Assembly: GCA_965367215.1 (NCBI GenBank)
Contig: CBDUIJ010000001.1
Coordinates: 1,901-65,900, forward strand
Direction of reading: 5' to 3'
DNA length: 64,000 bases
DNA from: an uncultured Granulosicoccus sp.
GTDB lineage: Bacteria > Pseudomonadota > Gammaproteobacteria > Granulosicoccales > Granulosicoccaceae
This document shows, in pieces, positions 39,930-56,643 of the stretch. Position 1 is the first letter of the stretch. Each line of letters starts with the position of its first letter. Position numbers and translations under genes: made by a program. The notes under the pieces were generated by a model. That model ran no database searches. It was given only the letters and a program-made list of their open reading frames with translations, and had not been told where the DNA came from.

Positions 39930-41183
39930 ATGTCAGATATGGAAAACCAGACAATAAGCCGTGGGCTGCCGACGTCTCAGTGGCATCAACAGATACTGGG
40001 TCGTCTCATTGGTCGCCGTTTTGACCACCTTCTCGATGGCATCACTCATGGACAGCTGAGCCTGACGTGGCCGGATGGCCATCTGAGTCGACATGGCAAG
40101 AAGTCGATTGATCCGTCTCGCAATGCACAGCTGACCTTGCACAACTACCGTCCCATTCGCCAGATGATGATGTCGGGAGAGAACGGTTTTGCTGAAAGCT
40201 ATCTGCAGGGCGACTGGTCATCGGACAATCTGCGCAATCTGTTTACCCTGATTCTCAATAACGAGCCGGAAGTGGCTGTCATGACGACTGGCAGCTGGTA
40301 CGCGCGCTTGCTCAACACCTTGAGGCATGGCAGAAACAGCAACTCGCTGCGCGGCAGTCAGCGCAATATCGAGTTTCACTACGATTTGGGCAATGATTTC
40401 TATCAGCTCTGGCTGGACCCGACCATGAGCTACTCATCGGCTGTCTTCGAAGGTGATGAATCACTGGAGCAGGCTCAGGATGCCAAGTTGTCCAGGGTGG
40501 TCGAATCGCTGAAGCCAGCCCCCGGTGCTCGGGTGCTGGAGATCGGCTGCGGCTGGGGAGCCATGGCTCACAAGCTGGCGACGCAGGCCGAGTGCCGGGT
40601 AGAAGGTATTTCACTGTCACAGGAGCAGCTGCGATACGCCAGGGATTTCAACAATGTCGAGAGTGAGTCAGGCAGGCAGGGTAGTACGGAATTCCGTTAC
40701 CAGGATTATCGGGCGGTAGAGGGAAGCTACGATCACATCGTTTCCATAGAAATGTTCGAAGCGGTCGGCGAGAAGTACTGGAATACGTATTTCGACAAGC
40801 TGGGTCAGTTGCTGGAGCAGGGCGGGACTGCAGTGCTACAGGTGATAACCATCGATGAGCAACGTTTCGATGAGTATCGCGCCAGTCCGGACTTCATTCA
40901 ACGTTATATATTTCCCGGTGGCATGCTGCCAACCAAGGAGCACCTGACAAGACTGGTTGAAGGATCAGGTTTCGAGCTGGTTGAAGTCGACTGGTTCGGA
41001 ACGAGCTATGCACAGACACTGTTGCATTGGCGGGAACGCTTCGATCAGGTGATATCCGAGGTGACTGCGCTGGGTTTCGACGATCGCTTTGCGCGCATGT
41101 GGCGCTACTATCTGGATTATTGCGAGACCGGCTTCAGGCTGGGCCGTACTGACGTCGGCCAGCTACTGCTGCGCAAGTGTTGA
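39930..41183 (+). CDS. Cyclopropane-fatty-acyl-phospholipid synthase-family SAM methyltransferase
   Basis: From the ATG at 39930. Motifs seen: HYDLGNDFYQLWLD, SAM motif I VLEIGCGWG, and FIQRYIFPGGMLP. Confidence 0.88.
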   Translation: MSDMENQTISRGLPTSQWHQQILGRLIGRRFDHLLDGITHGQLSLTWPDGHLSRHGKKSIDPSRNAQLTLHNYRPIRQMMMSGENGFAESYLQGDWSSDNLRNLFTLILNNEPEVAVMTTGSWYARLLNTLRHGRNSNSLRGSQRNIEFHYDLGNDFYQLWLDPTMSYSSAVFEGDESLEQAQDAKLSRVVESLKPAPGARVLEIGCGWGAMAHKLATQAECRVEGISLSQEQLRYARDFNNVESESGRQGSTEFRYQDYRAVEGSYDHIVSIEMFEAVGEKYWNTYFDKLGQLLEQGGTAVLQVITIDEQRFDEYRASPDFIQRYIFPGGMLPTKEHLTRLVEGSGFELVEVDWFGTSYAQTLLHWRERFDQVISEVTALGFDDRFARMWRYYLDYCETGFRLGRTDVGQLLLRKC

Positions 41184-43181
41184 ACCCGATTTCAGGTATC
41201 GTTCGGCACTGGCCCTGAGCTCGGCTTCGTGCTGACGTCTGGATGTGCCCTCTGTCGGGCTCAGCTTGATGGGATATTGCAAGGCGAGGCGGCACATTGC
41301 TGCGTAGGTGTCGGCGAGGCTGCGTTGCGCGCTGGCAAAACGGTGCAACAATTCCTCATCGACAGGGTCCTCGACCGTGTTCAATGTGGTGCCTGCAAGC
41401 CATCCCCGGTTGTCATCATGAATGCGAGCGGCCCGCTGCAGGGCTTCATCCACAGATGCGTCGAAGGCTCTGAGAACGGCAACAGCCTGGGTGCCCGTGC
41501 GCGGATTGCGTCTGAAGCCCGTGTGGAAGTGGGTGAATCCGTTTGCTTTCCAGAAATCCAGTTTGTCACAGTCGCCGGCAAAGCTGGCTCCCAGGGCCGA
41601 CAGGCTGCCGACGGGCAGGGCAATCGTTCGAGCAAGTTCCTGTAAAAGTCGGGATCCCAGTCCCCGGCGGCGTCGGTGCGGGCAAACGGCGATCCGAATG
41701 ATTCTGCCCATGGAGGCCTTCAGCGGTGCCGTCCGGTTGGCGCTCTGCGCCAGCAACTGAGGTAGCAGTTGATGAGGCAATCGCCGCTGTTTGCAGAGCA
41801 CAGCCTCGTGCAGGCGGGCGTCGATGTTCCCTTCGATGGCCAGCAGCAGCGCAGCACTGATTTCCTGCTGCTCTTCCAGCACCCAGATCTGCAGATCCGG
41901 GCCGTCAAGCAGATGCGAGATATCGGATGCCGTGGTCTGGTAGTGACTCTCTCTGAGCAGGGAAAAAACGTCAGTGAGCAGGGATTCGTTCTGCACCAGC
42001 TCATCTCTGTCGATGCGACGTATCAGCAGATCGGGTTGGTCCGGTTTTACGCTGATTGTCTGCTTGCCGACTCGATCTCTGCTTCGTGCAGCGCAAGGGT
42101 TGCTGTCGTGTTTCGCTGTATCGGCATGCCGTGTCAGAAGAAGTGTGTCAATGAACTCCTCCAGCGGGTCTCCTGACGCCCAGCGCCAGGCTGTACGGGG
42201 ATGAAGTGCCAGCACCTCACGAGGCTGCTGATCGAGTACCTCGGCGAAACGAATATCGAAAGCCCGCCCTGCCTGTTCATAGCCTTCAATCGTCGTGCAG
42301 TAAATGACATGTTCGTGATGCTGAAGGTAGCGTGTCAGTGTGTCGATGGGCAGACTGGCTGCCTCATCTATCAGAAGTGCACGACAACCGGAATCAACGG
42401 CCTCTGATGCAGCGAGGAAAGGGATAACTACGCCCTGTTTCTCCACGCTCTGCAATGCGCTGCGCCTGGCAGCTGTCATCGCCACTGATATGCCCTGTTG
42501 CCTCAGCCAATGGGCGATACGTCCCAGCAATGCAGACTTGCCACGTCCTCTGCGTCCGGTAATCGTCAGGCAGCCATCGGGGTATCGTTGCAGATGCCGA
42601 ATTGCGGCGAGCAACAGTTCATCCTGCTCGCAAGCGGCTGACTTGTGCGGCAAGTTGTCTCCTGCCGGCACTATGCCAATGTTTGATAGAGGTGAGTCGG
42701 GTGCAGGATCGTCTTCGTTGGCAAGCTCAGCCAGACTGATCACGCTGATCTTGCCCGGGTGCTTTTGCTCGCATTGCAACAGGAGTCTGCCCAGACGTTG
42801 CTGGAAGCGACTTTCCGGTCTGGCGGTTGGGACCTGCACAGCACTTGTCAACGAAACGCGCAGGCCCAGTATCAATATTCCTCCGGCTCTGATCGTGCCT
42901 GTCAGAGCGGCCAGGAGCCCTGCATCGACAGAAGCGGGAGTTTCATGCACCAGAATGTCAAATTCCCGACCGAGCATATCGGTGATTCGATCGGCACGGT
43001 CAGCCGAGTCTTCCGGCGCCAGAAATGGCGCGTCGATCGCCGTTGCCAGGGTTTGCAGGTAGCCGTCTGGTGGATTCTCGATGACCAATAGAGCTCGATG
43101 CCTGTCAGTATTCGCCTGATCGCGGAATCGCGCTATATGTTGCACTAACGACCGATGATTGCTGATTTGGAGGCGCGACAC
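41163..43181 (-). CDS. tmcA: tRNA(Met) cytidine acetyltransferase
   Basis: 672 aa, the same size as E. coli TmcA. It has a helicase-like Walker A (GRRGRGKSALLG) and a GNAT motif A (RIAVCPHRRRRGLGSRLL). Confidence 0.85.
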   Translation of the reverse strand: MSRLQISNHRSLVQHIARFRDQANTDRHRALLVIENPPDGYLQTLATAIDAPFLAPEDSADRADRITDMLGREFDILVHETPASVDAGLLAALTGTIRAGGILILGLRVSLTSAVQVPTARPESRFQQRLGRLLLQCEQKHPGKISVISLAELANEDDPAPDSPLSNIGIVPAGDNLPHKSAACEQDELLLAAIRHLQRYPDGCLTITGRRGRGKSALLGRIAHWLRQQGISVAMTAARRSALQSVEKQGVVIPFLAASEAVDSGCRALLIDEAASLPIDTLTRYLQHHEHVIYCTTIEGYEQAGRAFDIRFAEVLDQQPREVLALHPRTAWRWASGDPLEEFIDTLLLTRHADTAKHDSNPCAARSRDRVGKQTISVKPDQPDLLIRRIDRDELVQNESLLTDVFSLLRESHYQTTASDISHLLDGPDLQIWVLEEQQEISAALLLAIEGNIDARLHEAVLCKQRRLPHQLLPQLLAQSANRTAPLKASMGRIIRIAVCPHRRRRGLGSRLLQELARTIALPVGSLSALGASFAGDCDKLDFWKANGFTHFHTGFRRNPRTGTQAVAVLRAFDASVDEALQRAARIHDDNRGWLAGTTLNTVEDPVDEELLHRFASAQRSLADTYAAMCRLALQYPIKLSPTEGTSRRQHEAELRASAERYLKSGSTLAQQ

Positions 43182-43948
43182 AGTTGTTTTACTTTCACAA
43201 TCAAAGGGGGGGCGGTTTCGTATAATAGTGACTCGAAAGTGTGGTGACTTTCGTTATTCCTCCTCCAAGTGGTATTGAGGCACGGAGCCATATGAGGCCA
43301 CGGACGGCCACTCTTTTTGCAGACCCGACCAATTGTAGTGTTTTCACCTGCTATTCGGGTATGCCCAGTTGGGGTCGAGCGATTTTTCTCCTGTGTTTGT
43401 GGTTTTTTGCTTCGGCTTTTGCGAACCATGCACAGACTTGATTCAACGTATCTTTCAATATCGGACGGTTTGGCGCCACTGTGGTCCTGAACAGTCTGTC
43501 TATCCCCGTATCCCGAGTTTTGAAATTCGTGGTGGTAGACAGTTTTCGAGCACTGGAAATTCTGGTTATCGCAATTGCAATGCTCTGTAAACCTGTCTAA
43601 AATCACACTGTAATCAATGGTTTGAAGAATTTAATTGATTTTGATACTAGGGGCAGTGCTGTGGTTGTTAACTGTTTCGTTGAAATAATGCGCGCGTCCA
43701 GTACTATGCGCGTTCGTTCGGTGACAGAGAGCTTGCCTGATGCAGAATATTCTGATGCTGCAGGCATGAAACGGCTTTGGTGCCTGGGGACAACATGTTC
43801 GTGGCGGCGGACATACCTGATTTACGCCTGATACAAGGTAGTTTTTGCAACGGTGCTTAACAACCGTTGAACAGTTGTTAGTTTTGTCGGATACACTATG
43901 CGGTGTGTTCGGCAGTCATTCATTCATGTTTTCAATCGAGGATCACAA

Positions 43949-45115
43949 ATGATCAACAAATATTTTGCACTGAGTCTTGTTGCTGCCAGCGTGGCAGTAG
44001 CTTCTGGCTGTTCTTCCGACGACGACAGCGACGGCGATACTGATGGCGGTTACGTTTCACCACCAGCAGTAGCTGACGACGCTGGTTCAATTTACGACTA
44101 CATCGCTGATTCAGCTGCAAATTCCAGCCAGTTCCTTACGTTGAAAACAGCTATCGATGCTGCCAACGACTTGGCCAACACTCTGGATGATGTCACTCTG
44201 GGACTCACCATGTTCGCTCCTGACGATGCTGCATTTGCGTCATTGGAAGAGGGTGTACTTGACGGTCTGCTGGCTGATCCAGACCGATTGGAAGAAGTGC
44301 TGCGATACCACGTTGCTGCAAGCACACTGACTGCCGAAACCATCGTTGCAGATCTGACAGCCGCTGCTGGTGAGCCAGTCGAGAAGGAAACACTGCTTGA
44401 AGGCGAGAGCGTCACTTTGTCAAGCTCAACTGAAGGCCAGGGCGTTGCCGTCAATGATGTGGCAGTTGTCGGTACTGATCTGAATGTTGTCGTTGCTGAT
44501 GCAGACGCTGATGCAGATGCAGATGCAGATGCAGATGCAGATGCAGACGTTGATGCAGATGCAGACGTTGATGCTGATGCTGATGCCGATGCTGATGCAG
44601 CTACAGAGCAAATGGGTATCGTTCACCAGATTTCCGGTGTTCTGACTGCTCCTGAAGTTGAAGAAGAAACAACTGGTGGTGAGACTGGCGGCGAAGAAAC
44701 TGGTGGTGAAACCGGTGGCGAGACTGGCGGTGAAACCGGCGGCGAGACAGGTGGTGAAACTGGCGGCGAGACAGGTGGCCCAGTTGCTACATCTCTGTCA
44801 ACCAACAACAGTGCATTCCTGACAGCTTTCTCAAACCGTTTCGGTGCGCAGAAGCTTGACGCTGCTACAGATGCTGATCCTTGGACCGTATTTGCTCCAA
44901 CTGAAGCTGCTGCTGATATCGATGTTGGTAACTACATCATCACTGGTTCTGGCCTGACAGCTCAAGAGCTGATCGACATGGGTACCAGCCCTTCATTCGG
45001 CGGAACTACACTGACTTTCGGTGGAACTGCTGATGCACTGACAGTCAATGGTCTTCCAGCTACTCTGGTAGGTGGCGATGCGACTGTAACCTACTCGGTT
45101 GAAGGTGCTCTGTAA
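43949..45115 (+). CDS. Fasciclin (FAS1)-domain lipoprotein with internal acidic and Gly/Glu/Thr repeats
   Basis: The ATG at 43949 is preceded by GAGGA. The signal peptide has the lipobox VASGC. FAS1-type motifs [15 protein letters not shown] and TVFAPTEAA flank (DA)n and (GGET)n tracts. Confidence 0.8.
44495..44602 (+). repeat. In-frame hexanucleotide tandem repeat (GAT/GAC-GCN), encoding (Asp-Ala)n with two Asp-Val units
   Basis: The sequence gctgatgcagacgctgatgcagatgcagatgcagatgcag... is read directly. It translates to [35 protein letters not shown]. Confidence 0.9.
44674..44778 (+). repeat. In-frame 12-nt tandem repeat (GGN GGN GAR ACN) encoding (GGET)n, about 8 units
   Basis: The sequence ggtggtgagactggcggcgaagaaactggtggtgaaaccggtggcgagact... 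translates to [35 protein letters not shown]. Confidence 0.9.
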
Positions 45116-45346: not shown

Positions 45347-46516
45347 ATGACAATCCGCATCAACAGCAGTTTCGACAGTGGCAACATTGAAGTCATCGAT
45401 GCCAGCGACTCGGCTTCAATCCAGTTGAAGATCCGCAAGGACACAAACTCGGATTTCCTGCAGTGGTTCTATTTCAGCGTGGCAGGTGTCAAGGGCAAGA
45501 CGTGCCGAATCACGTTGGTCAATGCCGCCCAGACCAGTTACCCGAAAGGTTGGGAAGGCTACGACGTGGCGACATCGGTAGATCGTCAGTTCTGGTACCG
45601 CACTCCGGCAGAATACGATGGCCAGCAGCTCAGCTGGACATTCGAGGCGCAGAGCGACCTGGTCTGGTTTGCCTACTTTGCACCCTACACAATGGACCGG
45701 CATCTGGATTTCGTCGCAGCGGCTGCCACTGCTGAGGGCGTGCGCTATGAGAGTCTGGGAGTCACGCATCAGGGCCGCAGTATCGATTACCTGCAGGTGA
45801 GTGGTTTGCAGTCGGAAGCGGCCAACGAGCCACACAACAGCAAACGCAAACAGCTGTGGGTCATCGCACGACAGCACCCGGGCGAGTCGATGGCAGAGTG
45901 GTGGATGGAAGGATGGCTCGATCGCCTGCTGGATCAGGACGATGCGCGCAGCCGTGAATTGCGATCGCTGGCGGACATCCATATCGTGCCGAACATGAAC
46001 CCTGATGGCACTTTTCTGGGCAATCTCAGAACCAATGCACTGGGTGTCAACCTTAACCGTGAGTGGCAGTCACCGAGTATTGAAAAGAGTCCGGAGGTAT
46101 TTCATGTACGGCAGCGCATGGAGCAGACAGGTATCGATCTGTCGCTGGATGTTCATGGTGATGAAGGCCTGCCGTACAACTTCATAGCCGGCACCGAGGG
46201 TATCGCCGACTGGAACGATGAGAGAGATGCAGAGCTGGTGGCGTTCAAGCGTGAATGGGCAGCGGTGAACCCGGATTTCCAGTACGCGAATGGTTATCCA
46301 AGGACACCCGGGGGGCAGGCCAATCTGGCTATCTGCAGCAGTAATCTGGCGCAGAGTTTCGGCTGTCTGGCCATGACCCTGGAAATGCCGTTCAAGGACA
46401 CGCAGGATACTCCTCGCCCTTTCAGTGGCTGGTCGCCAGAGCGCAGCATGCGGTTGGGAGCCTCGTTCGTGGACATGGCACACATGGCCTTGACTGGTCA
46501 GTTGGCAACACGCTGA
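45347..46516 (+). CDS. M14-family zinc carboxypeptidase, cytosolic-carboxypeptidase-like (M14D/CCP type)
   Basis: 389 aa. The N-terminal beta-sandwich region has SFDSGNIEV (the FESGNL-like CCP motif). It also has Zn ligands QHPGES (HxxE), plus NMNPDG, NLNREW and DVHGDE. Confidence 0.8.
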   Translation: MTIRINSSFDSGNIEVIDASDSASIQLKIRKDTNSDFLQWFYFSVAGVKGKTCRITLVNAAQTSYPKGWEGYDVATSVDRQFWYRTPAEYDGQQLSWTFEAQSDLVWFAYFAPYTMDRHLDFVAAAATAEGVRYESLGVTHQGRSIDYLQVSGLQSEAANEPHNSKRKQLWVIARQHPGESMAEWWMEGWLDRLLDQDDARSRELRSLADIHIVPNMNPDGTFLGNLRTNALGVNLNREWQSPSIEKSPEVFHVRQRMEQTGIDLSLDVHGDEGLPYNFIAGTEGIADWNDERDAELVAFKREWAAVNPDFQYANGYPRTPGGQANLAICSSNLAQSFGCLAMTLEMPFKDTQDTPRPFSGWSPERSMRLGASFVDMAHMALTGQLATR

Positions 46517-46600: not shown

Positions 46601-48079
46601 CTACTGAAAGGCAGTTTCGAAAAAGCTTCTGAGTTTTCTCGAATGCAGCCGCTCGGACTTCATTTCGCTGAGTTTCCGAAGAGCCAGCATGCCGATTTCC
46701 AGATGTTGTGATACCTGGTTCTGGTAGAACTCCGATGCCATGCCGGGTAGTTTCAGTTCGCCCTGCAAGGGTTTGTCGCTGACGCAGAGGAGGGTGCCAT
46801 ACGGCACTCTCAGCCTGAAACCGTTGGCCGCAATGGTTGCCGACTCCATGTCCAGGGCGATGGCTCTGGACTGCGACAGGCGTCTTACCGGTTCTCTCTG
46901 ATCCTGGAGCTCCCAGTTGCGGTTGTCGATGGAGGCGACGGTGCCGGTACGCATGATGCGTTTCAGTTCGTAGCCGTCCAGCCCTGTTACTTCCGCCACG
47001 GCGCCTTCAAGCGCCTGTTGCACTTCGGCCAATGCCGGAATAGGCACCCATACCGGAATGTCGGCATCGAGCACCTTGTCTTCACGTACGTAGGCGTGAG
47101 CAAGGACATAGTCGCCCAGTTCCTGAGAATTCCTCAGTCCGGCGCAATGGCCGAGCATCAGCCAGGCGTGAGGTCGCAGCACGGCAATGTGGTCGGTAAT
47201 GGTTTTCGCATTGGACGGGCCCACACCGATGTTGACCATCGTGATGCCTTTCTGTTTGCCGGCTTTGAGATGGTAGGACGGCATCTGGGGCTGGCGCGTA
47301 GGTGGTGTGCCTGAGCTGGGTTCCGATTCGCCGTTGAGGGTGATCACATTGCCCGGCTCCACAAAGGACTCATAGCCTGTATCACCCTTGCGCATCATGT
47401 CGCGCGCCAGGCGGCAGAATTCGTCGATATAGAACTGATAGTTGGTGAACAGAACATAGTTCTGGAAGTGCTCGGGAGCGGTCGCCGTGTAGTGCACCAG
47501 GCGGTGCAGGGAGTAGTCGATTCGCTGCGCCGGGAATGGCGCCAATGGCAGTGCCAGTCCGGGTTCGATTTCGTGTGTGCCGTTGACGATGTAGTCGTTG
47601 ACTTGCGCAATGTCCGGAACGTCGAAGGCATCTCGCAGCGCGACCGTAATCTTCTGGGGGCGGTGGACCGCCAGTGCGGAGCCCGACTCCAATGCGAAAT
47701 GCAGGGGGATGGGAACATCGGATTCAGCGATTTCAACCGGTTCTGCATGATTCTCGATCAGCAGGCTGAGCTGGTGAATGAGATAACCGCGAAACAGGCG
47801 AGGCTGAGTAATGGTGGTGGTGTACAGGCCGGGTTGATCAACGTGGCCGTAGGACAGACGCGAATCCACACGCGCATAGGTACTGTTGCGAAAGCGGATT
47901 TCAGGGTAGAAGGCGCGGTGCTTGTTGTCGGGCAGGCTGCCAGTCAGATACTGGGCAAAGGCGTCTGCGAGAAAGGCCGTATTGCGATCGTAGAGAGCGA
48001 TCAGGCAATCGACTGCTTCAGTGGCATCCGTGAAACTTGCCGAGGCTTGTGGGGGTGGGGTCGTCTGTTGTTCTGTCAT
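46601..48079 (-). CDS. amn: AMP nucleosidase
   Basis: From MTEQQTT. It is colinear with E. coli Amn from memory (LFTNYQFYIDEF, MVNIGVGPSNAKTITDHIAVLRPHAWLMLGHCAGL, IALDMESATIAANG, LHSRKLRSF). Confidence 0.92.
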   Translation of the reverse strand: MTEQQTTPPPQASASFTDATEAVDCLIALYDRNTAFLADAFAQYLTGSLPDNKHRAFYPEIRFRNSTYARVDSRLSYGHVDQPGLYTTTITQPRLFRGYLIHQLSLLIENHAEPVEIAESDVPIPLHFALESGSALAVHRPQKITVALRDAFDVPDIAQVNDYIVNGTHEIEPGLALPLAPFPAQRIDYSLHRLVHYTATAPEHFQNYVLFTNYQFYIDEFCRLARDMMRKGDTGYESFVEPGNVITLNGESEPSSGTPPTRQPQMPSYHLKAGKQKGITMVNIGVGPSNAKTITDHIAVLRPHAWLMLGHCAGLRNSQELGDYVLAHAYVREDKVLDADIPVWVPIPALAEVQQALEGAVAEVTGLDGYELKRIMRTGTVASIDNRNWELQDQREPVRRLSQSRAIALDMESATIAANGFRLRVPYGTLLCVSDKPLQGELKLPGMASEFYQNQVSQHLEIGMLALRKLSEMKSERLHSRKLRSFFETAFQ

Positions 48080-48124
48080 TGCAGCTCCGTTCGAATTCTT
48101 GAGCAACGATATCATGCCTGTACG

Positions 48125-49369
48125 TCAGGTCCTGTCCGAGTAACGCAGGTACAAGGCCGCGAGCACAGCAGCTGGCAGATAGAGATACTGTAGTAGTTGA
48201 TCATGCGGCAGCGGTATGACAAGCAATACAACAGCGAGCAATGAAAATGCGATGCCCAGCCAGAACTGGGAGCTGTAGCTTTTCACCAGCAGGTAGGACT
48301 GGCTGCCGCTTCCCCTGGCAACGTCGAAAAAACGCTTGTTGAAGGCCAGCCGGAAAAAGGATGAAAAGAAGGTAATGAGGATCAGGGCTATCCACAGACT
48401 GGGCCCCCCGGAGTCTCCATCCAGTGTGAAGCGCAATAGCCAGGAGCCGACATACAGCCAGACAGCTGCCCGATAAACCTGTCGTGACGCCAGCTGATCG
48501 ATACGGTTCTTGATCAGGTAGAAGAGGGCGGCAAACACCAGGGCCAGTACGACCACGGCAAGACCCAGTCGACCGAAATCTTCCTGCACAACGAGGAACA
48601 GTGTCAGCGTCCAGAAATGGCTTTCCAGATAGAGAAACAGTCCATCGACCGCAAACGCAGGTCGGGACCCGCGTTCATCCCGGAAGGCAAGGCTGCCGAA
48701 CAGGGACGCTGCACCAGTATCGCGCTCGGATGACAGCCGTTTCTGGCCGGGTTGCTTGCCCGCCAGGTGCAGATTGGCGACCAGGCTTGTGCCTGCGGAC
48801 AGAGCCAGCAGCCAGACGAAACCGCCGGTCTCCAGTAGCAGGCCGCCGAGCAGGATACCGACTTTCAGAAACACCATGACGAAGATCTGGAAGTTGCCGT
48901 ACTGGCGTCCACTATCGTTTTCGCCAAGCTGTTGCAGAAACAGCGTGCGTTGTGTGGTCCAGAAGAATGCGTTGTAGAGGCCGTTGCAGAGGCCGAGCAC
49001 GGCCGCAGCGAACACCATGGCCGGCGTCGATATCGCATGGCTGGCGCCGGGCGGCGTGAACAGGGCCGCGCCGGGTACGGTCGTCAGCAGGCCGACCGCA
49101 GCAAGCAGCATCAATTCAAGCACAAAGGTCAGGGTGATCAGGTGTTTCAGGTGCCAGCGGCGAGCCAGCTTCTGCCACAGGCCGAGCGCCGCTGCGAAGC
49201 TGAGCCCGGATACGCCAATCAGCAGGGACAGGCCGGCAAGATCAAGCCCGTGTTGCCACAGGTACACGGGCAGGAAGAACGGCAGCAAGCCGATCAATAA
49301 TGAATGGGCACCCAGAAACAGGTAGAAGTAGCCCGGGCCAGAGTTGGCGGCCGGTAATCTCATTCCCAT
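48125..49369 (-). CDS. MFS-like polytopic membrane transporter
   Basis: 414 aa, with about 12 hydrophobic segments throughout. It has a basic loop after TM2 (WQKLARRWHLKH). No substrate assignment is possible. Confidence 0.65.
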   Translation of the reverse strand: MGMRLPAANSGPGYFYLFLGAHSLLIGLLPFFLPVYLWQHGLDLAGLSLLIGVSGLSFAAALGLWQKLARRWHLKHLITLTFVLELMLLAAVGLLTTVPGAALFTPPGASHAISTPAMVFAAAVLGLCNGLYNAFFWTTQRTLFLQQLGENDSGRQYGNFQIFVMVFLKVGILLGGLLLETGGFVWLLALSAGTSLVANLHLAGKQPGQKRLSSERDTGAASLFGSLAFRDERGSRPAFAVDGLFLYLESHFWTLTLFLVVQEDFGRLGLAVVVLALVFAALFYLIKNRIDQLASRQVYRAAVWLYVGSWLLRFTLDGDSGGPSLWIALILITFFSSFFRLAFNKRFFDVARGSGSQSYLLVKSYSSQFWLGIAFSLLAVVLLVIPLPHDQLLQYLYLPAAVLAALYLRYSDRT

Positions 49370-49439
49370 GGGGTCAGCCTGCCAACCGTGTGATCGTCAG
49401 CTGGTGCGCAAGGCACGATGGTTGGCAACGGTTGCGGAG

Positions 49440-50348
49440 TCAGTAGATGTCGGAGTCCGCGACCACCAGAGAGTCCATTTCCTGATAGAAATCATCCAGA
49501 TTCTCACGCTCGCCATAACGCGGCGCGCTGTGCATGCGCGTATAGGGGCGGGAATTGACTTCAAGGAAGATGCAGCGCTGCTCGCGGTAATCCTTCTCGA
49601 TACCCTCTTCGAAAATGACGTCGATGCCGAAGAGCTTGGCGTCGAAGGCCTTGATGACTTTCAGGAAGAGTTCGCGATTCGCCTCGGGGATGGTTGACTG
49701 GTCGATGATCTCGATGACGCCGCCAGGTGCCAGTGCCACTCGATTGAAGGTGTAGACGCGCTCACCCTCGGCCGGCACGCTGTCGAGTGTCTTGCCATGG
49801 CGTCGCAGATAATCGACGGTTGTCTGTGACTTCGGTATGGGGTGAACCGTCGGGTACAGGCCCATTTTTTCACGCGTGGCGTTTTCAGCATCAATCAGGG
49901 TGCTGATGGAATCCTTGCCATTGCCATCGACGAACGGAGGGTAGCGGCGAATGACGGATACCAGTGAGTCACCGGTAGCCAGAACCCGGTAGTTGGCGCC
50001 AAGCAGATATTGTTCGACAATGCTGGTGGGCCACCAGACCTTGACCAGCAAGGCGGCTTTCCACAGTTCCCGGTAGTTGTTGATCGGGAAATGACTGCCA
50101 CGGGAAAATCCGCTGACATTGGGCTTGATGCACAGAGGGAAGCCATGTTCTCTGGCAAACAGATGCGCTTTCCAGGGATTCAGAAACAGAGTGCCACGGG
50201 CATGGGGAATGTCATGCCGGGCAAACATTTCGCGAGCCTGCCTTTTGGAACGGCTGGCTTTTCTGACTTGTAATGAGTTGTAGTTGCTACAGCCAGCCAT
50301 GTACTTCTGGCTGACCCAGCTATAAATCAGCGCTTTGATTGATTTCAC
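49440..50348 (-). CDS. Stand-alone ATP-grasp ligase resembling the G (ATP-grasp) domain of cyanophycin synthetase
   Basis: 302 aa. These segments follow the order of the CphA ATP-grasp domain as I recall it: FPLCIKPNVSGFSRG, IVEQYLLGANYRVLATGDSLVSVIRRYPPFVDGNGKDSISTLIDAEN, LDSVPAEGERV, LFGIDVIF and IFLEVNSRPYTRMHSAP. There is no Mur-ligase-like M domain. The GTG start overlaps the upstream stop (GTGA). Confidence 0.65.
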   Translation of the reverse strand: MKSIKALIYSWVSQKYMAGCSNYNSLQVRKASRSKRQAREMFARHDIPHARGTLFLNPWKAHLFAREHGFPLCIKPNVSGFSRGSHFPINNYRELWKAALLVKVWWPTSIVEQYLLGANYRVLATGDSLVSVIRRYPPFVDGNGKDSISTLIDAENATREKMGLYPTVHPIPKSQTTVDYLRRHGKTLDSVPAEGERVYTFNRVALAPGGVIEIIDQSTIPEANRELFLKVIKAFDAKLFGIDVIFEEGIEKDYREQRCIFLEVNSRPYTRMHSAPRYGERENLDDFYQEMDSLVVADSDIY

Positions 50349-51220
50349 GGTTGTATGTAGTGCTCGCCGATCTTGGGCGTTGTATTGTTGGTAGTGACGG
50401 TGCTGGTCGCGCGGGATTTTCCACGGCCGTACAACATCATGCGGGCAAAGATTGGCTGGGGGTTTTCCACCGGGGTGATCATTCGGGTGGCCTTTGCCAG
50501 GCTCATCATGGCAGAGCGGATGAATTTCCAGCGCTGTTCCCAGCTGTAGTCGCGATCCAGCAGGTTGATGGGCATCGGCAGGAACAGGTTGATCTCGATG
50601 ACATGGAAGTTGCCGGCAACCAGCTCTTCATTGGAATCGGCTCTGACACTCATTCGGCTGATGCCGAACTCTCCAACCTGAGACAGGTAAGCTGCCACGA
50701 TATCCTGTTGTTCTGCAGAGAACTGATTGCTGATATCGACATAGCGCGTATGCAGGTTGTTCTTGCTGTTGATCGGGAATTGTTCGCGATCGTTGACCGC
50801 TTCGGTAATGGTCAGAACATCGTGCTTGCCGTCACTGCGATTGGCATCGATGCTGAATATCTCGTACTCACGCTTGCCGGGGGCTGCTTGCTGAATCAGA
50901 TAGCGCTGGGGCTCTGAACGCAGGGAGGCCCGCAGTCGGACCAGCTGCTCGGCATCATCCACGCGGTGTATGCCATGCGCGTTCTGACCCCATTCGGGTT
51001 TCAGGAATACCGGGTAGGTCGTGGGTATGACCGCATCAGAATCGATGCTCTGCGGCAGACGCCAGCGATCCGGAATCAGCGCATCCAGTGAAAGCTTCGA
51101 AAAGATGCCGTGTTCGGCCGAAAAATAGCGTGCATTGAGCTGCCAGTATCGCCAGGGCGCGGTACCTGTGCGCGCGCAGCACAGGATGTAGGTTACAACC
51201 ATGATTATGGTGATATGCAT
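50345..51220 (-). CDS. Second, divergent ATP-grasp-like ligase
   Basis: 291 aa. YPVFLKPEWGQNAHGIHRVDDAEQL, RYLIQQAAPGKREYEIFSI and FHVIEINLF (E-x-N) match the ATP-grasp core order. The N-terminus is hydrophobic. Confidence 0.5.
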   Translation of the reverse strand: MHITIIMVVTYILCCARTGTAPWRYWQLNARYFSAEHGIFSKLSLDALIPDRWRLPQSIDSDAVIPTTYPVFLKPEWGQNAHGIHRVDDAEQLVRLRASLRSEPQRYLIQQAAPGKREYEIFSIDANRSDGKHDVLTITEAVNDREQFPINSKNNLHTRYVDISNQFSAEQQDIVAAYLSQVGEFGISRMSVRADSNEELVAGNFHVIEINLFLPMPINLLDRDYSWEQRWKFIRSAMMSLAKATRMITPVENPQPIFARMMLYGRGKSRATSTVTTNNTTPKIGEHYIQP

Positions 51221-51478
51221 GTCGACCTACTACTGACTCCGTGGTACTTGGGCAGAAATCCCGCAACTCGCAATATTACAGTGTCATGGTATGTCACTGC
51301 CACTGCCTGGAGGCTCTGGCGGCTTGCAATATCGTTACCCGACGTAAAATTGTAGATACTCGATCTCATTGGCGGTTGTGAGCCGTTTGAGCCGGGAAGG
51401 TTCCGTTGTGGGGATGATCCGGTTATTTCAGGGCGAGGCTAACGTGACTGCAGTCTCATCGTTCGGGGATTGCAATAT

Positions 51479-52027
51479 TCACCGCGGGTTCAACTCTGGC
51501 AGGCTGATGGTCAATTCACCGCGACGGTGCAACAGCTCGTAGTGTCGCAGAAAGTTCATGCCCAGTAAGGCCGTGTTGCCCTCCAGGCCCGGGTTGATGT
51601 GCGCTGTCACGTTATATTGAGTGAAAGGGCCGATGGTGAGCTTGTCGAGCTGTGTCCGATAGACTCGGGTGCTGCCATTGGCTGTCATGACGTCGAAGGG
51701 CCTGCCTTGCGGCAGGTTCATGGTTCTCGCCACCACGCCGGGTATGCTGATTCCCGAGGCGCCTGTATCGATCAGGAACAAGACTTCTTCGTCATTGGCG
51801 CTACCGCTGAGTGCGAACTGGCCGTACCGGTCGGCTTTCAGAACCAGTGTTTGCCGGCCGCTACCGTCACTTGACCATTGCGGGGCCTTGTCAGCCTTTC
51901 GGGCGTCCAGCCAGCCTTGTGCCAGCCATGTGCCGCCACCCAGAACCAGTACCCAGAGCAGGGCGATCATCACGCCTGCGATGCGGTGACTCTCATCATG
52001 TGTCGAATCTGGCTTGCTATCTGACAT
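51479..52027 (-). CDS. Membrane-anchored retropepsin-like (clan AA) aspartic protease
   Basis: 182 aa. It has an N-terminal TM helix (IAGVMIALLWVLVLGGGTWLA), then FLIDTGASGISIP (D-T-G-A) and LLGMNFL. This resembles the TIGR02281-type family from memory. Confidence 0.75.
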   Translation of the reverse strand: MSDSKPDSTHDESHRIAGVMIALLWVLVLGGGTWLAQGWLDARKADKAPQWSSDGSGRQTLVLKADRYGQFALSGSANDEEVLFLIDTGASGISIPGVVARTMNLPQGRPFDVMTANGSTRVYRTQLDKLTIGPFTQYNVTAHINPGLEGNTALLGMNFLRHYELLHRRGELTISLPELNPR

Positions 52028-52050: not shown

Positions 52051-52251
52051 TGTGGGTTTACCGCGTCAGGCATCTTCTCGAACCATTTTGCGTCTGATTC
52101 ACGGCACCGATGGCAAGCAGTCAACTGCGAGTCATCGGCCAGTGATCAGGGTATCGGGTTTCGGAGGCTTAACCTGTAGCGGGTCCCAGCAAGGTAACGT
52201 CCGGGTTAGAACAAGACACCGGGCCATTAATCCCAGACCGTGAGCACCAAG

Positions 52252-54336
52252 ATGACTGAGCTTTCACACTACCGCAACATCGGCATTTTTGCCCACGTTG
52301 ATGCGGGCAAAACCACAACCACAGAGCGTATCCTGAAGCTCACGGGCAAGATTCACAAGACCGGTGAAGTTCATGATGGCGAAGCCACCACTGACTTCAT
52401 GGCACAGGAGCAAGAGCGCGGTATAACTATCCAGTCGGCTGCTACCAGCTGTGAATGGGATGGTCACCGGTTCAACGTCATCGATACTCCGGGACACGTT
52501 GACTTCACCATCGAAGTGTACCGTTCACTGAAAGTACTCGACGGCGGCGTCGGTGTCTTCTGCGGTTCCGGTGGTGTAGAGCCACAATCCGAAACAAACT
52601 GGCGCTATGCCAACGAATCAGAAGTTGCACGAATCATCTTCGTCAACAAGCTGGATCGTATGGGTGCCGATTTCTATCGCGTCGTCAAGCAGGTCAAGGA
52701 CGTTCTGGCCGCACGCCCATTGGTCATGGTCCTGCCTATCGGCACGGAAGATGACTTCGTTGGCGTGGTCGATCTGCTGACTGAAAAAGCCTGGGTCTGG
52801 GATGATTCCGGAAACCCGGAGAACTATTCCATCGAAGAAGTGCCTGCCGATATGGTCGAGCTGGTTGCCAAGTACCGCGAAGAGCTGGTTGAAAGCGCCC
52901 TGGAAATGGACGATGAAGCCATGGAGAAGTACTTCGAAGGTGAAGAGCCGGATATCGAAACCCTGCAGCGCTGCATTCGCAAGGGCACTATCGACCTTGT
53001 CTGGTTTCCTACGTTCTGTGGATCCGCGTTCAAGAACAAGGGCATGCAGCCCATGCTCGACGGCGTTGTTGCCTACCTGCCAAGCCCGACCGAAGTCAAG
53101 CCACAGCCTGAAGTCGATCTGGAAGGTGTTGAAACCGGTGAATTCGCCATCGTTGATCCGAACAAGCCTTTGCGTGCATTGGCGTTCAAGATCATGGATG
53201 ACCGTTACGGTGCACTGACCTTCATTCGTATCTACTCCGGAAAGATTGCCAAGGGCGATACCGTCCTCAACACCTTTACGGGCAAGACCGAGCGAATTGG
53301 TCGAATCGTGGAAATGAACGCTGAAGATCGCATCGAGCGTGATTCTGCACAGGCTGGCGACATCGTTGCTGTTCTGGGCATGAAGAACGTGCAGACGGGT
53401 CACACACTGGCTGATCCCAAGCATCCTGCCACGCTCGAGCCAATGGTATTTCCTGATCCGGTCATCTCCATCTCGGTTTCACCCATCGACAAGGCGGGTT
53501 CCGAGAAGCTGGGTGTGGCCATCGGCAAGATGGTTGCAGAAGATCCTTCATTCCGCGTCATGACTGACGAAGAAAGTGGTGAGACCATCCTCATGGGAAT
53601 GGGCGAGCTGCATCTGGACATCAAGATCGACATCCTGAAGCGTACTCACGGTGTTGAAGTTGAAGTCGGCAAGCCTCAGGTGGCCTACCGTGAAACCATC
53701 ACGCAGGTTATCGAAGATACCTACACGCACAAGAAGCAGTCTGGTGGTTCTGGTCAGTACGGTCGTATCGACTACACCATCGAGCCTGGCGAGCCAGGTA
53801 CCGGTTTCGAATTCGAATCCAAGGTCACAGGCGGTAACGTTCCTCGCGAATACTGGCCAGCGGTCGAGAAGGGCTTCAAGTTGTCCATGCATGAAGGTGT
53901 CCTCGCGGGCTACCCACTGCTCGACTTCCGCGTCGTACTGAAAGACGGTGCCTTCCACGCAGTTGACTCCAGTGCGCTGGCGTTTGAAATTGCTGCCAAG
54001 GGTGCTTATCGTCAGTCGATTCCGAAGGCAGGTCCTCAGATCATCGAGCCGGTCATGAAGGTGGATGTGTTCACACCTGAAGATCACGTGGGTGATGTCA
54101 TCGGTGACCTCAACCGTCGTCGTGGCATGATCAAGTCGCAGGAGCCGGGTGCAACAGGTGTCCGCATCAAGGCAGATGTGCCTTTGTCAGAGATGTTTGG
54201 CTACATCGGTGATCTGCGTACCATGACTTCCGGTCGTGGCCAGTTCTCCATGGAGTTCAGCCACTACAACGCATGCCCCAAGAACGTGGCAGACGTGGTC
54301 ATCAAGGAAGCTCAGGAACGCAAGGCGGCGAAGTAA
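52252..54336 (+). CDS. fusA: Elongation factor G (stand-alone paralog, outside the str operon)
   Basis: From the ATG at 52252 (the track ORF begins at a GTG at 52240). It has G1 [16 protein letters not shown]3 DTPGHVDF and G4 NKLDR. Length is about 694 aa. Confidence 0.93.
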
Positions 54337-54454: not shown

Positions 54455-55534
54455 TCAGAAATCGATGATGGACGCTTTCAATGCCTTGGCCACCGCATGC
54501 AGGCGGTTGGCAGCGTTCAGCTTGCGGGTGGCGTTTCGCAGATGGTAGATGATGGTGCTTTCCGTCACTCCGAGTATCTGGCTGATTTCCCAGGAAGTCT
54601 TGCCTTTGGCAGCCCAGTTCAGGCATTCGCGTTCCCGGGCGCTGATATGGCTGTCTCCGACAGCATCGCCGGTCTTTTCATTCCTGTCGCGAACGCTGTG
54701 GCGTGACACGACCCGTGGTTGGCTGAGGCTCGGGTCATCGTCTTCTGCGGAACGTGTGTTGACGTTGTTGATCAGGTTCATGACACGCTGAGCTGCGCTC
54801 TGGCCCACATGGGCAAGGGGCAGGTGCATGGTGCTCAGAGCGGGGCGCGTATGGGCTGCCTCGTAATGATCTCCGCAGCCGATCAGTGAAATGTCGTCAG
54901 GGACACGAATGCCGTTTTCCTGGCAAACGCGCAAGGCGCCAATCGCCATTCGATCATTGAGCAGGAAAATGGCGGTCGGTGTCACCTTGGAGGCCAGCAG
55001 GATATTCATGGCGCTGGCTCCACCTTCTTCGTCCATGGACGATTCCAGCGTCTGTAATTTCACGTCACGCCCCTGAGGGCTGTTGATGGGCTGCATGAAG
55101 CCTTCGACGACATGCTGGATACTGAAACGGTAGAGCGGGCCGGACACCAGGGCGATACGCCTGTGACCTGTCTTCAGCAGGTGAGCTGCCGCCAGTTTGC
55201 CGGTCTGCGTGTTGTGAACATTGGCCAGGACCACATTCTTGCGCGTGCTGATCAAACGCGCCAGCTGATCGTTGGACAGGCAGTCCGAGTGGAGAATGAT
55301 TCCGTCACAGGCACTGCGAGAGAGAATATGCCAGGCAGTCTTCTCTGCACGCATGCTGCGCCCGGCCGATACCACCACGGTTTCGAAGCCGTTGGCCTCG
55401 AGTTTGGCGACGGCCGCGTCTACCAATGGTGCCAGACTGGAGGCGCCTGTGAGTTCAGCCATGATGCCAACCCGCCGGCTGGTGGGGGGCAGAAGTCTGT
55501 CAGACATCACGGAATCAGTGGCCTGCAGGTACAC
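54455..55534 (-). CDS. Hybrid regulator: LacI/PBP-type ligand-binding core with a C-terminal LuxR/GerE HTH
   Basis: The LacI-type sugar-binding core pattern is present (DGIILHS, RRIALVSGP, AIFLLNDRMAIGALRVCQENGIRVPDDISLIGCGD), but there is no N-terminal LacI HTH. The C-terminus ISARERECLNWAAKGKTSWEISQILGVTESTIIYHLRNATRKL is a LuxR-type HTH. The start is uncertain. Confidence 0.7.
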   Translation of the reverse strand: MYLQATDSVMSDRLLPPTSRRVGIMAELTGASSLAPLVDAAVAKLEANGFETVVVSAGRSMRAEKTAWHILSRSACDGIILHSDCLSNDQLARLISTRKNVVLANVHNTQTGKLAAAHLLKTGHRRIALVSGPLYRFSIQHVVEGFMQPINSPQGRDVKLQTLESSMDEEGGASAMNILLASKVTPTAIFLLNDRMAIGALRVCQENGIRVPDDISLIGCGDHYEAAHTRPALSTMHLPLAHVGQSAAQRVMNLINNVNTRSAEDDDPSLSQPRVVSRHSVRDRNEKTGDAVGDSHISARERECLNWAAKGKTSWEISQILGVTESTIIYHLRNATRKLNAANRLHAVAKALKASIIDF

Positions 55535-55659
55535 GAAGGGGGGTAGATTGCCGGTTGTGAGCGTTCAGATTATTTTTAACCGCAGAACCTTCCATGTGGG
55601 TGCCTGTGCGTTGCTGTACGTGTAGGATAACGTCTTTATCAAGCACATTGCCCGGTACC

Positions 55660-56643
55660 ATGCTCGACTCCACACTAAACGATGCGTCAGATAACCTTCT
55701 GCTACCCGATACAACGGTTTCCGTCAGGGAAGTCTTCGGGCTGGACGTTGACCTCATGGTACCTGCCTACTCGAATCATACCGAGCGGGTGCCTGATATA
55801 GACCCATCCTATCTGTTTGATTTCCGCACGACAATGGCCATCCTGTCGGGCTTTGCCAATGACTGGCGAGTGCTGATCTCGGGATTCCACGGAACGGGTA
55901 AATCCACCCATATCGAACAGGTGGCTGCCAGGTTGAACTGGCCCTGTCTGCGAATCAATCTCGACAGTCACGTCAGCCGCATCGATCTGATCGGCAAGGA
56001 TGCAATCGTGCTGCGAGATGGCAAGCAGGTGACGGAATTTCAGGATGGCATCCTGCCCTGGGCCTACCAGCGCAATGTTGCTCTGGTTTTCGATGAATAC
56101 GATGCCGGACGTCCTGATGTGATGTTTGTCATTCAGCGCGTGCTGGAGTCCTCCGGTCAACTGACTCTGCTCGATCAGAGCCGGGTGATCAAGCCGCATC
56201 CGGCGTTTCGTTTCTTTGCCACGGCCAATACGGTCGGTCTGGGCGATACGACCGGCCTCTATCATGGCACCCAGCAGATCAATCAGGCACAGATGGATCG
56301 TTGGTCCGTGACAACCATTCTCAACTACCTGCCACCGGATCAGGAAGCCAAGGTGGTGCTGGCCAAGGCGCCGCATCTGCAGGACGAGGCTGGTGAGAAA
56401 CTGGTCCATCAGATGGTTGCACTGGCTGGTCTGACCCGCAGCGCATTTCGCAACGGCGATCTGGCGACGGTCATGAGTCCGCGGACGGTCATTACCTGGA
56501 CCCAGAACCTGACCTTCTTCAAGGATGTCGGACTGGCTCTCGAGTTGGCTTTCGTCAACAAGTGCGATCCGGCCGAGCGCGCATTGCTCGGTGAACTGTA
56601 TCAGCGTGTCTTTGGTGAGGAGCTTCCGGACATTGGCGTCTGA
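55660..56643 (+). CDS. cobS: CobS-type AAA+ ATPase (aerobic cobaltochelatase small subunit family)
   Basis: From the ATG at 55660. It has [18 protein letters not shown], Walker [10 protein letters not shown] and Walker B LVFDEYD. Size is about 327 aa. Confidence 0.82.

Follow-up and report, generated by a model that had tools for sequence, protein, structure and literature searches.

In the 64,000-nucleotide stretch of DNA analysed here (the window; contig CBDUIJ010000001.1 of an uncultured Granulosicoccus sp.), a co-directional block encodes a retropepsin-like protease, two ATP-grasp ligases, a major facilitator superfamily (MFS) transporter and an AMP nucleosidase. The original prediction took these five genes for a candidate system that makes and exports a peptide or amino-acid conjugate. 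We find that the functional unit is a three-gene cassette and not the five-gene block. It consists of the genes for an ATP-grasp protein of 291 amino acids (aa), here called gA, a second ATP-grasp protein of 302 aa (gB) and a membrane protein of 414 aa (the MFS protein); we refer to gA-gB-MFS as the trio. For this trio, synthesis and export of such a conjugate is still the best reading. With moderate confidence, and on the strength of sequence comparison, we propose that the two ligases form a complex that builds a small amide-linked metabolite, possibly hypotaurine-capped, which the dedicated MFS protein would export.

The genes of the block and the longest gap between them are as follows.

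51479-52027, minus strand: protease, 182 aa, a membrane-anchored clan AA aspartic protease of family TIGR02281; a neighbour outside the conserved module.
51221-51478, minus strand: spacer of 258 nt between the protease gene and gA, candidate promoter and 5' untranslated region of the trio.
50345-51220, minus strand: gA, 291 aa, a divergent ATP-grasp protein with a D-Ala-D-Ala-ligase-like fold; first gene of the trio.
49440-50348, minus strand: gB, 302 aa, a stand-alone ATP-grasp ligase of the group formed by the cyanophycin synthetase G domain and the C-terminal modules of GshF and Ngg; GTG start.
48125-49369, minus strand: MFS transporter, 414 aa; third gene of the trio.
46601-48115, minus strand: amn, AMP nucleosidase, 504 aa; a co-directional neighbour outside the conserved module.

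The listing of open reading frames (ORFs) bears out all five at these positions, and the peptide motifs that had been quoted from them (for example KPEWGQNAHG, IEINLF, LDSVPAEGERV and FLIDTGASG) are all present in the translations. Read directly from the sequence, the stop codon of gA overlaps the start of gB by GTGA, the gap from gB to the MFS gene measures 70 nt and that from the MFS gene to amn 9 nt. The junctions had been described as short or overlapping, which is accurate for these three and inaccurate for the 258 nt that separate the protease gene from gA. Profile searches agree with the earlier family calls for all five proteins, the MFS protein falling just under the threshold of MFS_1.

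The trio was followed through two samples of loci. A species-level scan with one genome per species returned 195 stretches encoding a gB relative, of which 80 were kept. The most distant relatives then served as seeds for a metagenome scan that added 80 further loci, the GC content over the 160 loci ranging from 0.29 to 0.54. gA directly precedes gB in all 140 loci with enough flank, and the MFS gene directly follows gB in 137/138. Wherever the contig permits the test, these genes thus keep their order and orientation. The loci span Granulosicoccaceae, Oceanospirillales, Sedimenticola, Colwellia, sponge symbionts and bacteria that use genetic code 25. Conservation in more than 140 loci shows that the ORFs are real genes and not chance reading frames. 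A database of 5.8 billion proteins holds 522 homologues of gA and, among the candidates scored, 356 of the MFS protein at E<=1e-3; both families appear to be confined to the gA-gB-MFS cassette. The nearest homologues of all three trio proteins come from Granulosicoccus, and one locus of an uncultured Granulosicoccus (L003) encodes proteins that are mostly 98-99% identical to those of the window in this region, the protease and the MFS protein reaching 94%.

The outer two genes of the block do not share this distribution. In 128 loci, gB shares less than 66% identity with that of the window; none of these has the protease gene within 2.5 kb, and a single one has amn at any position. A further set, in which each locus extends 2.5 kb or more to either side, comprises 19 loci of Granulosicoccaceae type and 64 others. 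Here the protease gene is adjacent in 14/19 and 2/64 loci, respectively, and amn lies downstream in 19/19 and 0/64. Two further neighbours in the window, encoding an EF-G paralogue (19/19 and 1/64) and an M14 peptidase (15/19 and 0/64), show the same family-restricted pattern, which argues that the adjacency of the protease gene and amn is ordinary synteny. The expected co-conservation of a four- or five-gene block was therefore found for the two ligases, which are fused in some lineages (see below), and the transporter, and was absent for the protease and AMP nucleosidase, neither of which can be retained as a member of the system. The five-gene block is family-level synteny around a three-gene module.

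In line with this delimitation, the spacer upstream of gA carries conserved blocks. An alignment of eight Granulosicoccus loci revealed the invariant blocks GGAACC-TC, TCACA, ATTGCAAG, TAA-AT and GGAGT, which include a TAATAT box and a GGAG ribosome-binding site. These blocks suggest that gA begins its own transcription unit, and 51221-51478 is possibly its promoter or operator. The same alignment contains a small GGG...CCC hairpin about 25 nt before the gA start, with some compensatory changes. A riboswitch or structured leader was considered at this position and set aside, since Rfam returned nothing meaningful between 45000 and 53000 at E<=1 and the RNAalifold consensus reached only -8.6 kcal/mol. 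A scan of promoters and terminators gave no more sites than in shuffled sequence.

A close association of the two ligases is indicated by gene fusions. Searching a representative library, we found proteins of 576-581 aa in which a gA-like half is followed by a gB-like half. In L083 and L142, the metagenome contigs MAAC01013689.1 and Ga0233426_10105066 (GC 0.29-0.35), both halves lie in one reading frame that is broken by TGA only; read with code 25, positions 8001-9758 of L083 form a single ORF of 585 aa. At least 7 of the 12 TGA codons in L083 fall on invariant or near-invariant glycine positions of the family, and these contigs therefore belong to code-25 bacteria, of Gracilibacteria or Absconditabacteria type, with a fused ligase. 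Fused proteins are also seen in P0243-P0246, of which P0243 and P0246 are fragments and at least P0246 is without W-for-G substitutions; in the L084 group the two genes are unfused and separated by TAA or TAG stops. The fused code-25 gene is flanked by genes for a SulP-type transporter, a small membrane protein termed c3 (described below), a DinB-like protein, the MFS protein and a glutamate-synthase-like flavin mononucleotide protein. The last was rejected as a part of the system, being found downstream in two loci only. From the fusion, the invariant gene order and the translational coupling by short gaps or by overlap, as at the GTGA of the window, we infer that gA and gB form a physical two-subunit enzyme.

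gB looks like an active ligase whose nucleophile and acyl substrate differ from those of the cyanophycin synthetase CphA1. The original prediction had it following the G domain of CphA in the absence of the M domain, and the profile searches confirm this. Its best NCBIfam match is to positions 196-462 of TIGR02068 (E 9e-38), with neither the N nor the M region covered, and its score of 129.8 bits lies far below the whole-protein cut-off of 850, so that gB is not a cyanophycin synthetase. The next profiles are GshF (E 1e-19; 70 vs 425 bits) and Ngg (E 5e-15; 55 vs 569 bits), and in the PDB gB matches CphA1 (7wac, E 4.5e-25). Nearly all homologues share the length of 302 aa, and identity amounts to 57-63% across gammaproteobacterial orders and to 51% with a code-25 bacterium. 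The nearest relatives beyond the family, proteins of 290-410 aa and multi-domain proteins, belong to no curated family and so provide no function that could be carried over to gB. Among them are uncharacterised proteins of about 800-1800 aa (for example P0256 and P0268) that combine two or three CphA-G-like ATP-grasp modules with an acylphosphatase domain at the C-terminus and, in some cases, TPR repeats.

We mapped the residues of gB by HMMER alignment to CphA1 of T. erythraeum (TeCphA1, 7wac) and by conservation within the family. In TeCphA1, K220 and K261 bind phosphates, R309 holds the acyl carboxylate, R323 lies near the gamma-phosphate, and D431, E450 and N452 are the Mg ligands (PMC9427784). 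All of these are kept in gB, as the invariant K35, K75, R121, D243, E263 and N265 and the nearly invariant R135 (for R323). The residue set for ATP, Mg and acyl phosphate is thus complete, and the set that recognises aspartate and the primer is not. N394 and R458 of TeCphA1 bind the beta- and the alpha-carboxylate of the incoming Asp, S396 lines the Asp pocket, G456 provides oxyanion stabilisation, E215 binds the Arg side chain of the primer and H267 is the P-loop histidine (PMC9427784). In gB, N394 is replaced by A or S at position 205, S396 by A207, R458 by a variable residue at position 271 (R, K, I or D), G456 by an invariant Y269, E215 by K30 and H267 by F81. Because the residues that hold Asp in CphA1 are replaced, the incoming nucleophile is probably not Asp.

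gA is, as had been predicted, the much more divergent of the two, with 39-51% identity against 57-63% for gB. Its similarity to D-Ala-D-Ala ligase (Ddl) is weak (Pfam Ddl_C E 4e-4, below the cut-off; 15-18 bits with the Ddl models of NCBIfam against cut-offs of 243-750) and confined to the C-terminal ATP-grasp region, residues 58-211, with no match to Dala_Dala_lig_N. Like gB, it is without the N-domain that precedes the ATP-grasp fold. The AlphaFold2 model of gA (predicted local distance difference test score, pLDDT, 76; predicted template modelling score, pTM, 0.74) was compared with known structures by Foldseek. The best PDB folds are those of Ddl, at a template modelling (TM) score of about 0.47 and 15% identity, and the probability is 1.0 for many structures of Ddl, synapsin and L-amino-acid ligases (LALs). 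The family keeps K42, K74 (within KPEWGQN), Q110, E118/E120, R189 and E209-x-N211 invariant. Fold, two phosphate-binding lysines and the E-x-N Mg motif together place gA in the ATP-grasp superfamily. The N-terminal helix, residues 2-17, is conserved and hydrophobic, with a median hydropathy of 2.15 across 79 homologues. gA and gB were also considered as recent paralogues; this was rejected at an hhalign probability of 2.7%, with only the 'FP..KP' strand aligned. The hidden Markov model searches proposed earlier for both ligases place neither in the Ddl, GshB or RimK housekeeping families, the curated cut-offs being missed widely.

The third protein of the cassette scores 31.2 bits with Pfam MFS_1 against a cut-off of 33.4 (E 1.4e-7), and MFS_1 is recorded for many of its homologues. 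Its AlphaFold2 model (pLDDT 90, pTM 0.90) has the helix pattern expected of an MFS protein with 12 transmembrane (TM) helices, and this two-bundle 12-TM fold places it in the superfamily. In Foldseek it matches NupG, NorA, VMAT2 and SPNS2 at TM scores of 0.6-0.67, NupG being the best.

Outside Granulosicoccaceae the trio keeps other company. Partner genes were found by clustering flanking ORFs and by profile searches, and are counted over the 64 well-flanked loci. The most frequent encodes c3, a four-helix (4-TM) membrane protein of about 165 aa without a family that emerged from the clustering (46/64), followed by genes for a YHS domain (seleno)protein (38/64; NF041384, E 9e-49), a DinB-family protein (16/64; Pfam) and a TANGO2/NRDE-like protein (11/64; Pfam). 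A group II pyridoxal-phosphate decarboxylase gene followed by the gene for a cupin of about 165-177 aa, always together, occurs in 8/64. Positions vary, with partners upstream, downstream or on the opposite strand of the trio. The commonest companion is the YHS (seleno)protein gene followed by c3 (for example at about 6100-7100 of L042 and 6071-6535 of L052). The presence of c3 and the DinB-like gene beside the fused code-25 gene is easier to explain by a functional link than by inherited synteny.

The decarboxylase and cupin genes offer a clue to the substrate. Cysteine is converted to hypotaurine in two steps, by a dioxygenase and then a decarboxylase. The cupins resemble cysteine dioxygenase (CDO) type 1, with a profile match at E 1e-8, and Y69, R71, H97, H99, H152, S162 and H164 are invariant among the 13 members of their family. 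The best PDB match of the decarboxylase is human cysteine sulfinic acid decarboxylase (CSAD; 2jis, E 6e-75), with GADL1 and GAD67 nearly equal and diaminobutyrate decarboxylases far lower. In 13 loci (L116, L039, L046, L055, L065, L067, L069, L070, L105, L120, L122, L139 and L148) the pair immediately precedes gA in the same orientation, with the upstream accessory genes farther out, and in L116 (2006-3957) the reading frames overlap. The two genes form a putative bacterial cysteine-to-hypotaurine pair.

Taken together, gA and gB would act as one two-subunit amide ligase. An ATP-grasp site phosphorylates a carboxylate with ATP, releasing ADP and Pi, and then captures an amine. Because each such site activates one carboxylate, the pair is expected to make two successive amide bonds on small molecules, giving a tripeptide-like product or an amine-capped dipeptide. 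By analogy with the G domain of CphA, the C-terminal module of GshF and Ngg, gB would most likely activate a short (pseudo)peptide at its C-terminal alpha-carboxylate. Its nucleophile would be an amine other than Asp, perhaps one without an alpha-carboxylate. Hypotaurine or taurine is the best candidate, at least in lineages with the CDO-like and CSAD-like pair, because these genes stand directly upstream of gA in the 13 loci. The dedicated MFS protein would export the product and, more speculatively, the hydrophobic N-terminal helix of gA may hold the ligase at the membrane beside the transporter. The protease and AMP nucleosidase would take no part.

A wider and rather improbable version of this proposal joins c3, the YHS protein and the DinB-like protein to the trio in a widespread, undescribed marine pathway. 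It would make and secrete a peptide capped with hypotaurine or taurine, a new small metabolite containing sulfur, as a periplasmic or extracellular redox buffer, a sulfide or selenium carrier or an osmolyte. The peptide would be built by a heteromeric, sometimes fused pair of ligases without N-domains, and the pathway would have spread horizontally to code-25 Patescibacteria.

Several observations weigh against a two-ligase complex that makes a hypotaurine-capped export product. The position of gA aligned with D257 of Ddl, the first Mg site, is S, A or G and carries no conserved acid, and gA may accordingly be a non-catalytic partner, leaving just one amide bond to be formed. The nearest MFS folds include importers (NupG) as well as exporters (NorA, SPNS2). 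The CDO/CSAD-like pair is rare, being present in 8/64 well-flanked loci and in no Granulosicoccaceae locus, and the tyrosine of the Ser-His-Tyr motif of the cupin is present in 8/13 members and replaced by Ser in 5/13. None of the genes for c3, the YHS protein or the DinB-like, TANGO2-like, CDO-like and CSAD-like proteins was found in the 64-kb window. Finally, the counts over the 160 loci are approximate, as the genome and metagenome sets were pooled without de-duplication.

Some of these points favour a reading in which gB is the sole working ligase and gA a scaffold or substrate-binding subunit, the product being a dipeptide or an amino acid-amine conjugate. Besides the missing acid at the first Mg-ligand position, the lower conservation of gA relative to gB and the loss of its N-terminal substrate domain fit this view. 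Both phosphate-binding lysines, the catalytic arginine and the E-x-N motif are nevertheless invariant, which would be unexpected in a pure scaffold, and we regard a purely structural gA as unlikely.

Less probable still is a reversal of transport, in which the MFS protein would import taurine, a dipeptide or a toxic analogue and the ligases would conjugate it for retention, assimilation or detoxification. The best structural match, NupG, is a proton symporter, and most loci are without hypotaurine-making genes, which makes an external supply plausible. However, loci with the CDO/CSAD-like pair would make the amine internally, yet all but L116 keep the MFS gene. In the biosynthesis of bacilysin, tabtoxin and dapdiamide, an ATP-grasp ligase gene stands beside an MFS efflux gene.

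The original five-gene system, with the protease trimming a peptide product and amn coupling synthesis to adenylate turnover, now seems very unlikely. Both proteins are what they were taken for. The protease matches TIGR02281 with 78.1 bits (cut-off 57.95), carries the D-T-G active-site motif within FLIDTGASG and has an N-terminal hydrophobic segment, presumably TM, at residues 16-34, and the amn product scores 740 bits with the equivalog NF006142 (cut-off 307) and 687 with TIGR01717 (cut-off 365). The five genes are also co-directional, only 9 nt separate amn from the MFS gene, with which it is possibly co-transcribed in the window organism, and the arrangement recurs in 14-19 of the 19 Granulosicoccaceae-type loci. 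Against this stand the near absence of both genes from loci outside the family (adjacent protease 0/128, amn 1/128), the 258-nt spacer with its own promoter-like blocks between the protease gene and gA, and the equally restricted EF-G paralogue and M14 peptidase, a pattern typical of inherited synteny. Nor does the chemistry connect the ligases to an AMP nucleosidase, since ATP-grasp enzymes yield ADP and Pi and not AMP; the suggested link to AMP turnover is therefore lost together with the co-conservation of amn. The M14 peptidase was itself considered as a tail-trimming partner of the ligases and rejected on the same distribution. It is a cytosolic-carboxypeptidase-like enzyme (45347-46516, plus strand; Pepdidase_M14_N and Peptidase_M14) convergent with amn. 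The EF-G paralogue (52240-54336, plus strand, 698 aa) is divergent from the protease gene and keeps its position throughout Granulosicoccaceae; its orthologue in G. antarcticus has all five EF-G domains.

We consider it highly improbable that the ligases form a cyanophycin-like polymer synthetase in which gA stands in for the Mur-ligase-like M domain. The G domain of CphA1 is the closest characterised relative of gB, and the fused gA-gB protein resembles a synthetase with two active sites. Nevertheless, N and M domains are missing, gB retains neither the residue that binds the primer (E215) nor those that recognise Asp (N394, S396 and R458), cyanophycinase occurs in none of the loci, and an MFS carrier is unable to move a polymer.

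Modification of a ribosomal peptide or protein, in the manner of graspetides or of RimK-like C-terminal tails, is the least probable reading of all: Foldseek does list the graspetide ligase PsnB for gA, at rank 37, but there is no conserved small ORF near the trio that could serve as the adjacent precursor gene of a graspetide, the gaps upstream of gA are in most lineages too short for one (mostly tens of bases to about 100 nt), scores for the RimK and graspetide families are negligible (gB reaches 24.1 bits with RimK TIGR00768 against a cut-off of 143.4, no stretch passing alone, and 17.3 against 21 with Pfam RimK), and the clade of gB acts on free small molecules. Two further candidates were discarded: anti-phage defence, as PADLOC gave no match for the ligases, the MFS protein or the protease, and a plasmid-borne mobile cassette, as tblastn against 72,556 plasmids returned only CphA at <30% identity.

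Elsewhere in the window, an ORF at 43898-45115 on the plus strand encodes a fasciclin-domain protein with a lipoprotein-like N-terminus and low-complexity runs, (Asp-Ala)n and (Gly-Gly-Glu-Thr)n, that cause spurious matches to models of staphylococcal Sdr/Clf adhesins. A TmcA-like tRNA cytidine acetyltransferase is encoded at 41163-43181. On the other side of the block lie a regulator with a periplasmic-binding-protein fold fused to a LuxR/GerE DNA-binding domain (54455-55534, minus strand) and, adjoining it, a CobS-like AAA protein (55594-56643, plus strand), next to which CobT is found in related genomes.

No NCBIfam, Pfam or PADLOC model describes the gA-gB-MFS cassette, and we found no description of it in literature on ATP-grasp enzymes with cyanophycin-like, MFS, Granulosicoccus, hypotaurine or CDO as further terms. 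Public records label its genes 'cyanophycin synthetase', 'D-alanine--D-alanine ligase' or 'hypothetical', and the first two labels need correcting. The cassette occurs in at least about 195 species-level genomes, among them kelp- and sponge-associated bacteria, sulfur oxidisers and genome-reduced code-25 bacteria. A chromosomal cassette so strongly conserved suggests a marine metabolite that is common yet unrecognised, and not an antibiotic peculiar to single strains. An ATP-grasp ligase with an exporter is a known route to small bioactive peptides, and the recurrent link to the CDO/CSAD-like pair gives a concrete guess at a building block, namely that of a hypotaurine-containing peptide. Moreover, two unrelated, truncated ATP-grasp domains working as an obligate pair would be a compact system found in nature that enzyme engineering could draw on.

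When comparing the ligases with known enzymes, the closest parallel to gB is the G domain of CphA1 and CphA2, with which it shares the layout of core, lid and omega-insert and all residues for ATP, Mg and the acyl phosphate. Whereas the CphA enzymes carry N and M domains, gB stands alone and is always paired with the genes of a second, unrelated ATP-grasp protein and an MFS protein. The reaction that we propose for gB is the one catalysed by the C-terminal module of GshF (GshAB) and by Ngg, both of which extend a small (pseudo)dipeptide by an amino acid at its C-terminal carboxylate. In these enzymes the ATP-grasp module shares a polypeptide with a glutamate-cysteine ligase or a GNAT domain, whereas the partner of gB is a Ddl-like ATP-grasp protein. 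That partner, gA, finds its best match in fold and sequence in D-Ala-D-Ala ligase and VanA; unlike them, it has no Ddl N-terminal domain and no cell-wall gene context.

The neighbourhoods in which RimK is paired with a retropepsin-like protease, invoked in the original prediction, resemble the window in placing an ATP-grasp gene near a clan AA protease gene. The comparison does not hold on closer inspection: the RimK score is negligible (24 vs 143 bits), and the protease of the window belongs to TIGR02281 / PF13975, which differs from the RimK-associated retropepsin-like family, presumably DUF785 (PF05618), and is not co-conserved with the ligases.

In overall logic the cassette is reminiscent of pairs of an LAL and an MFS efflux protein such as BacD and BacE of bacilysin, in which a small peptide is the product of a stand-alone ATP-grasp enzyme and leaves the cell through an MFS protein dedicated to it. 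The enzymes of this class (reviewed in PMC9486568) are single three-domain ligases encoded in taxon-restricted antibiotic clusters and are unrelated to gA and gB in sequence. The trio, in contrast, combines an obligate pair of ligases without N-domains in a chromosomal cassette that extends across marine lineages and has accessory genes of its own.

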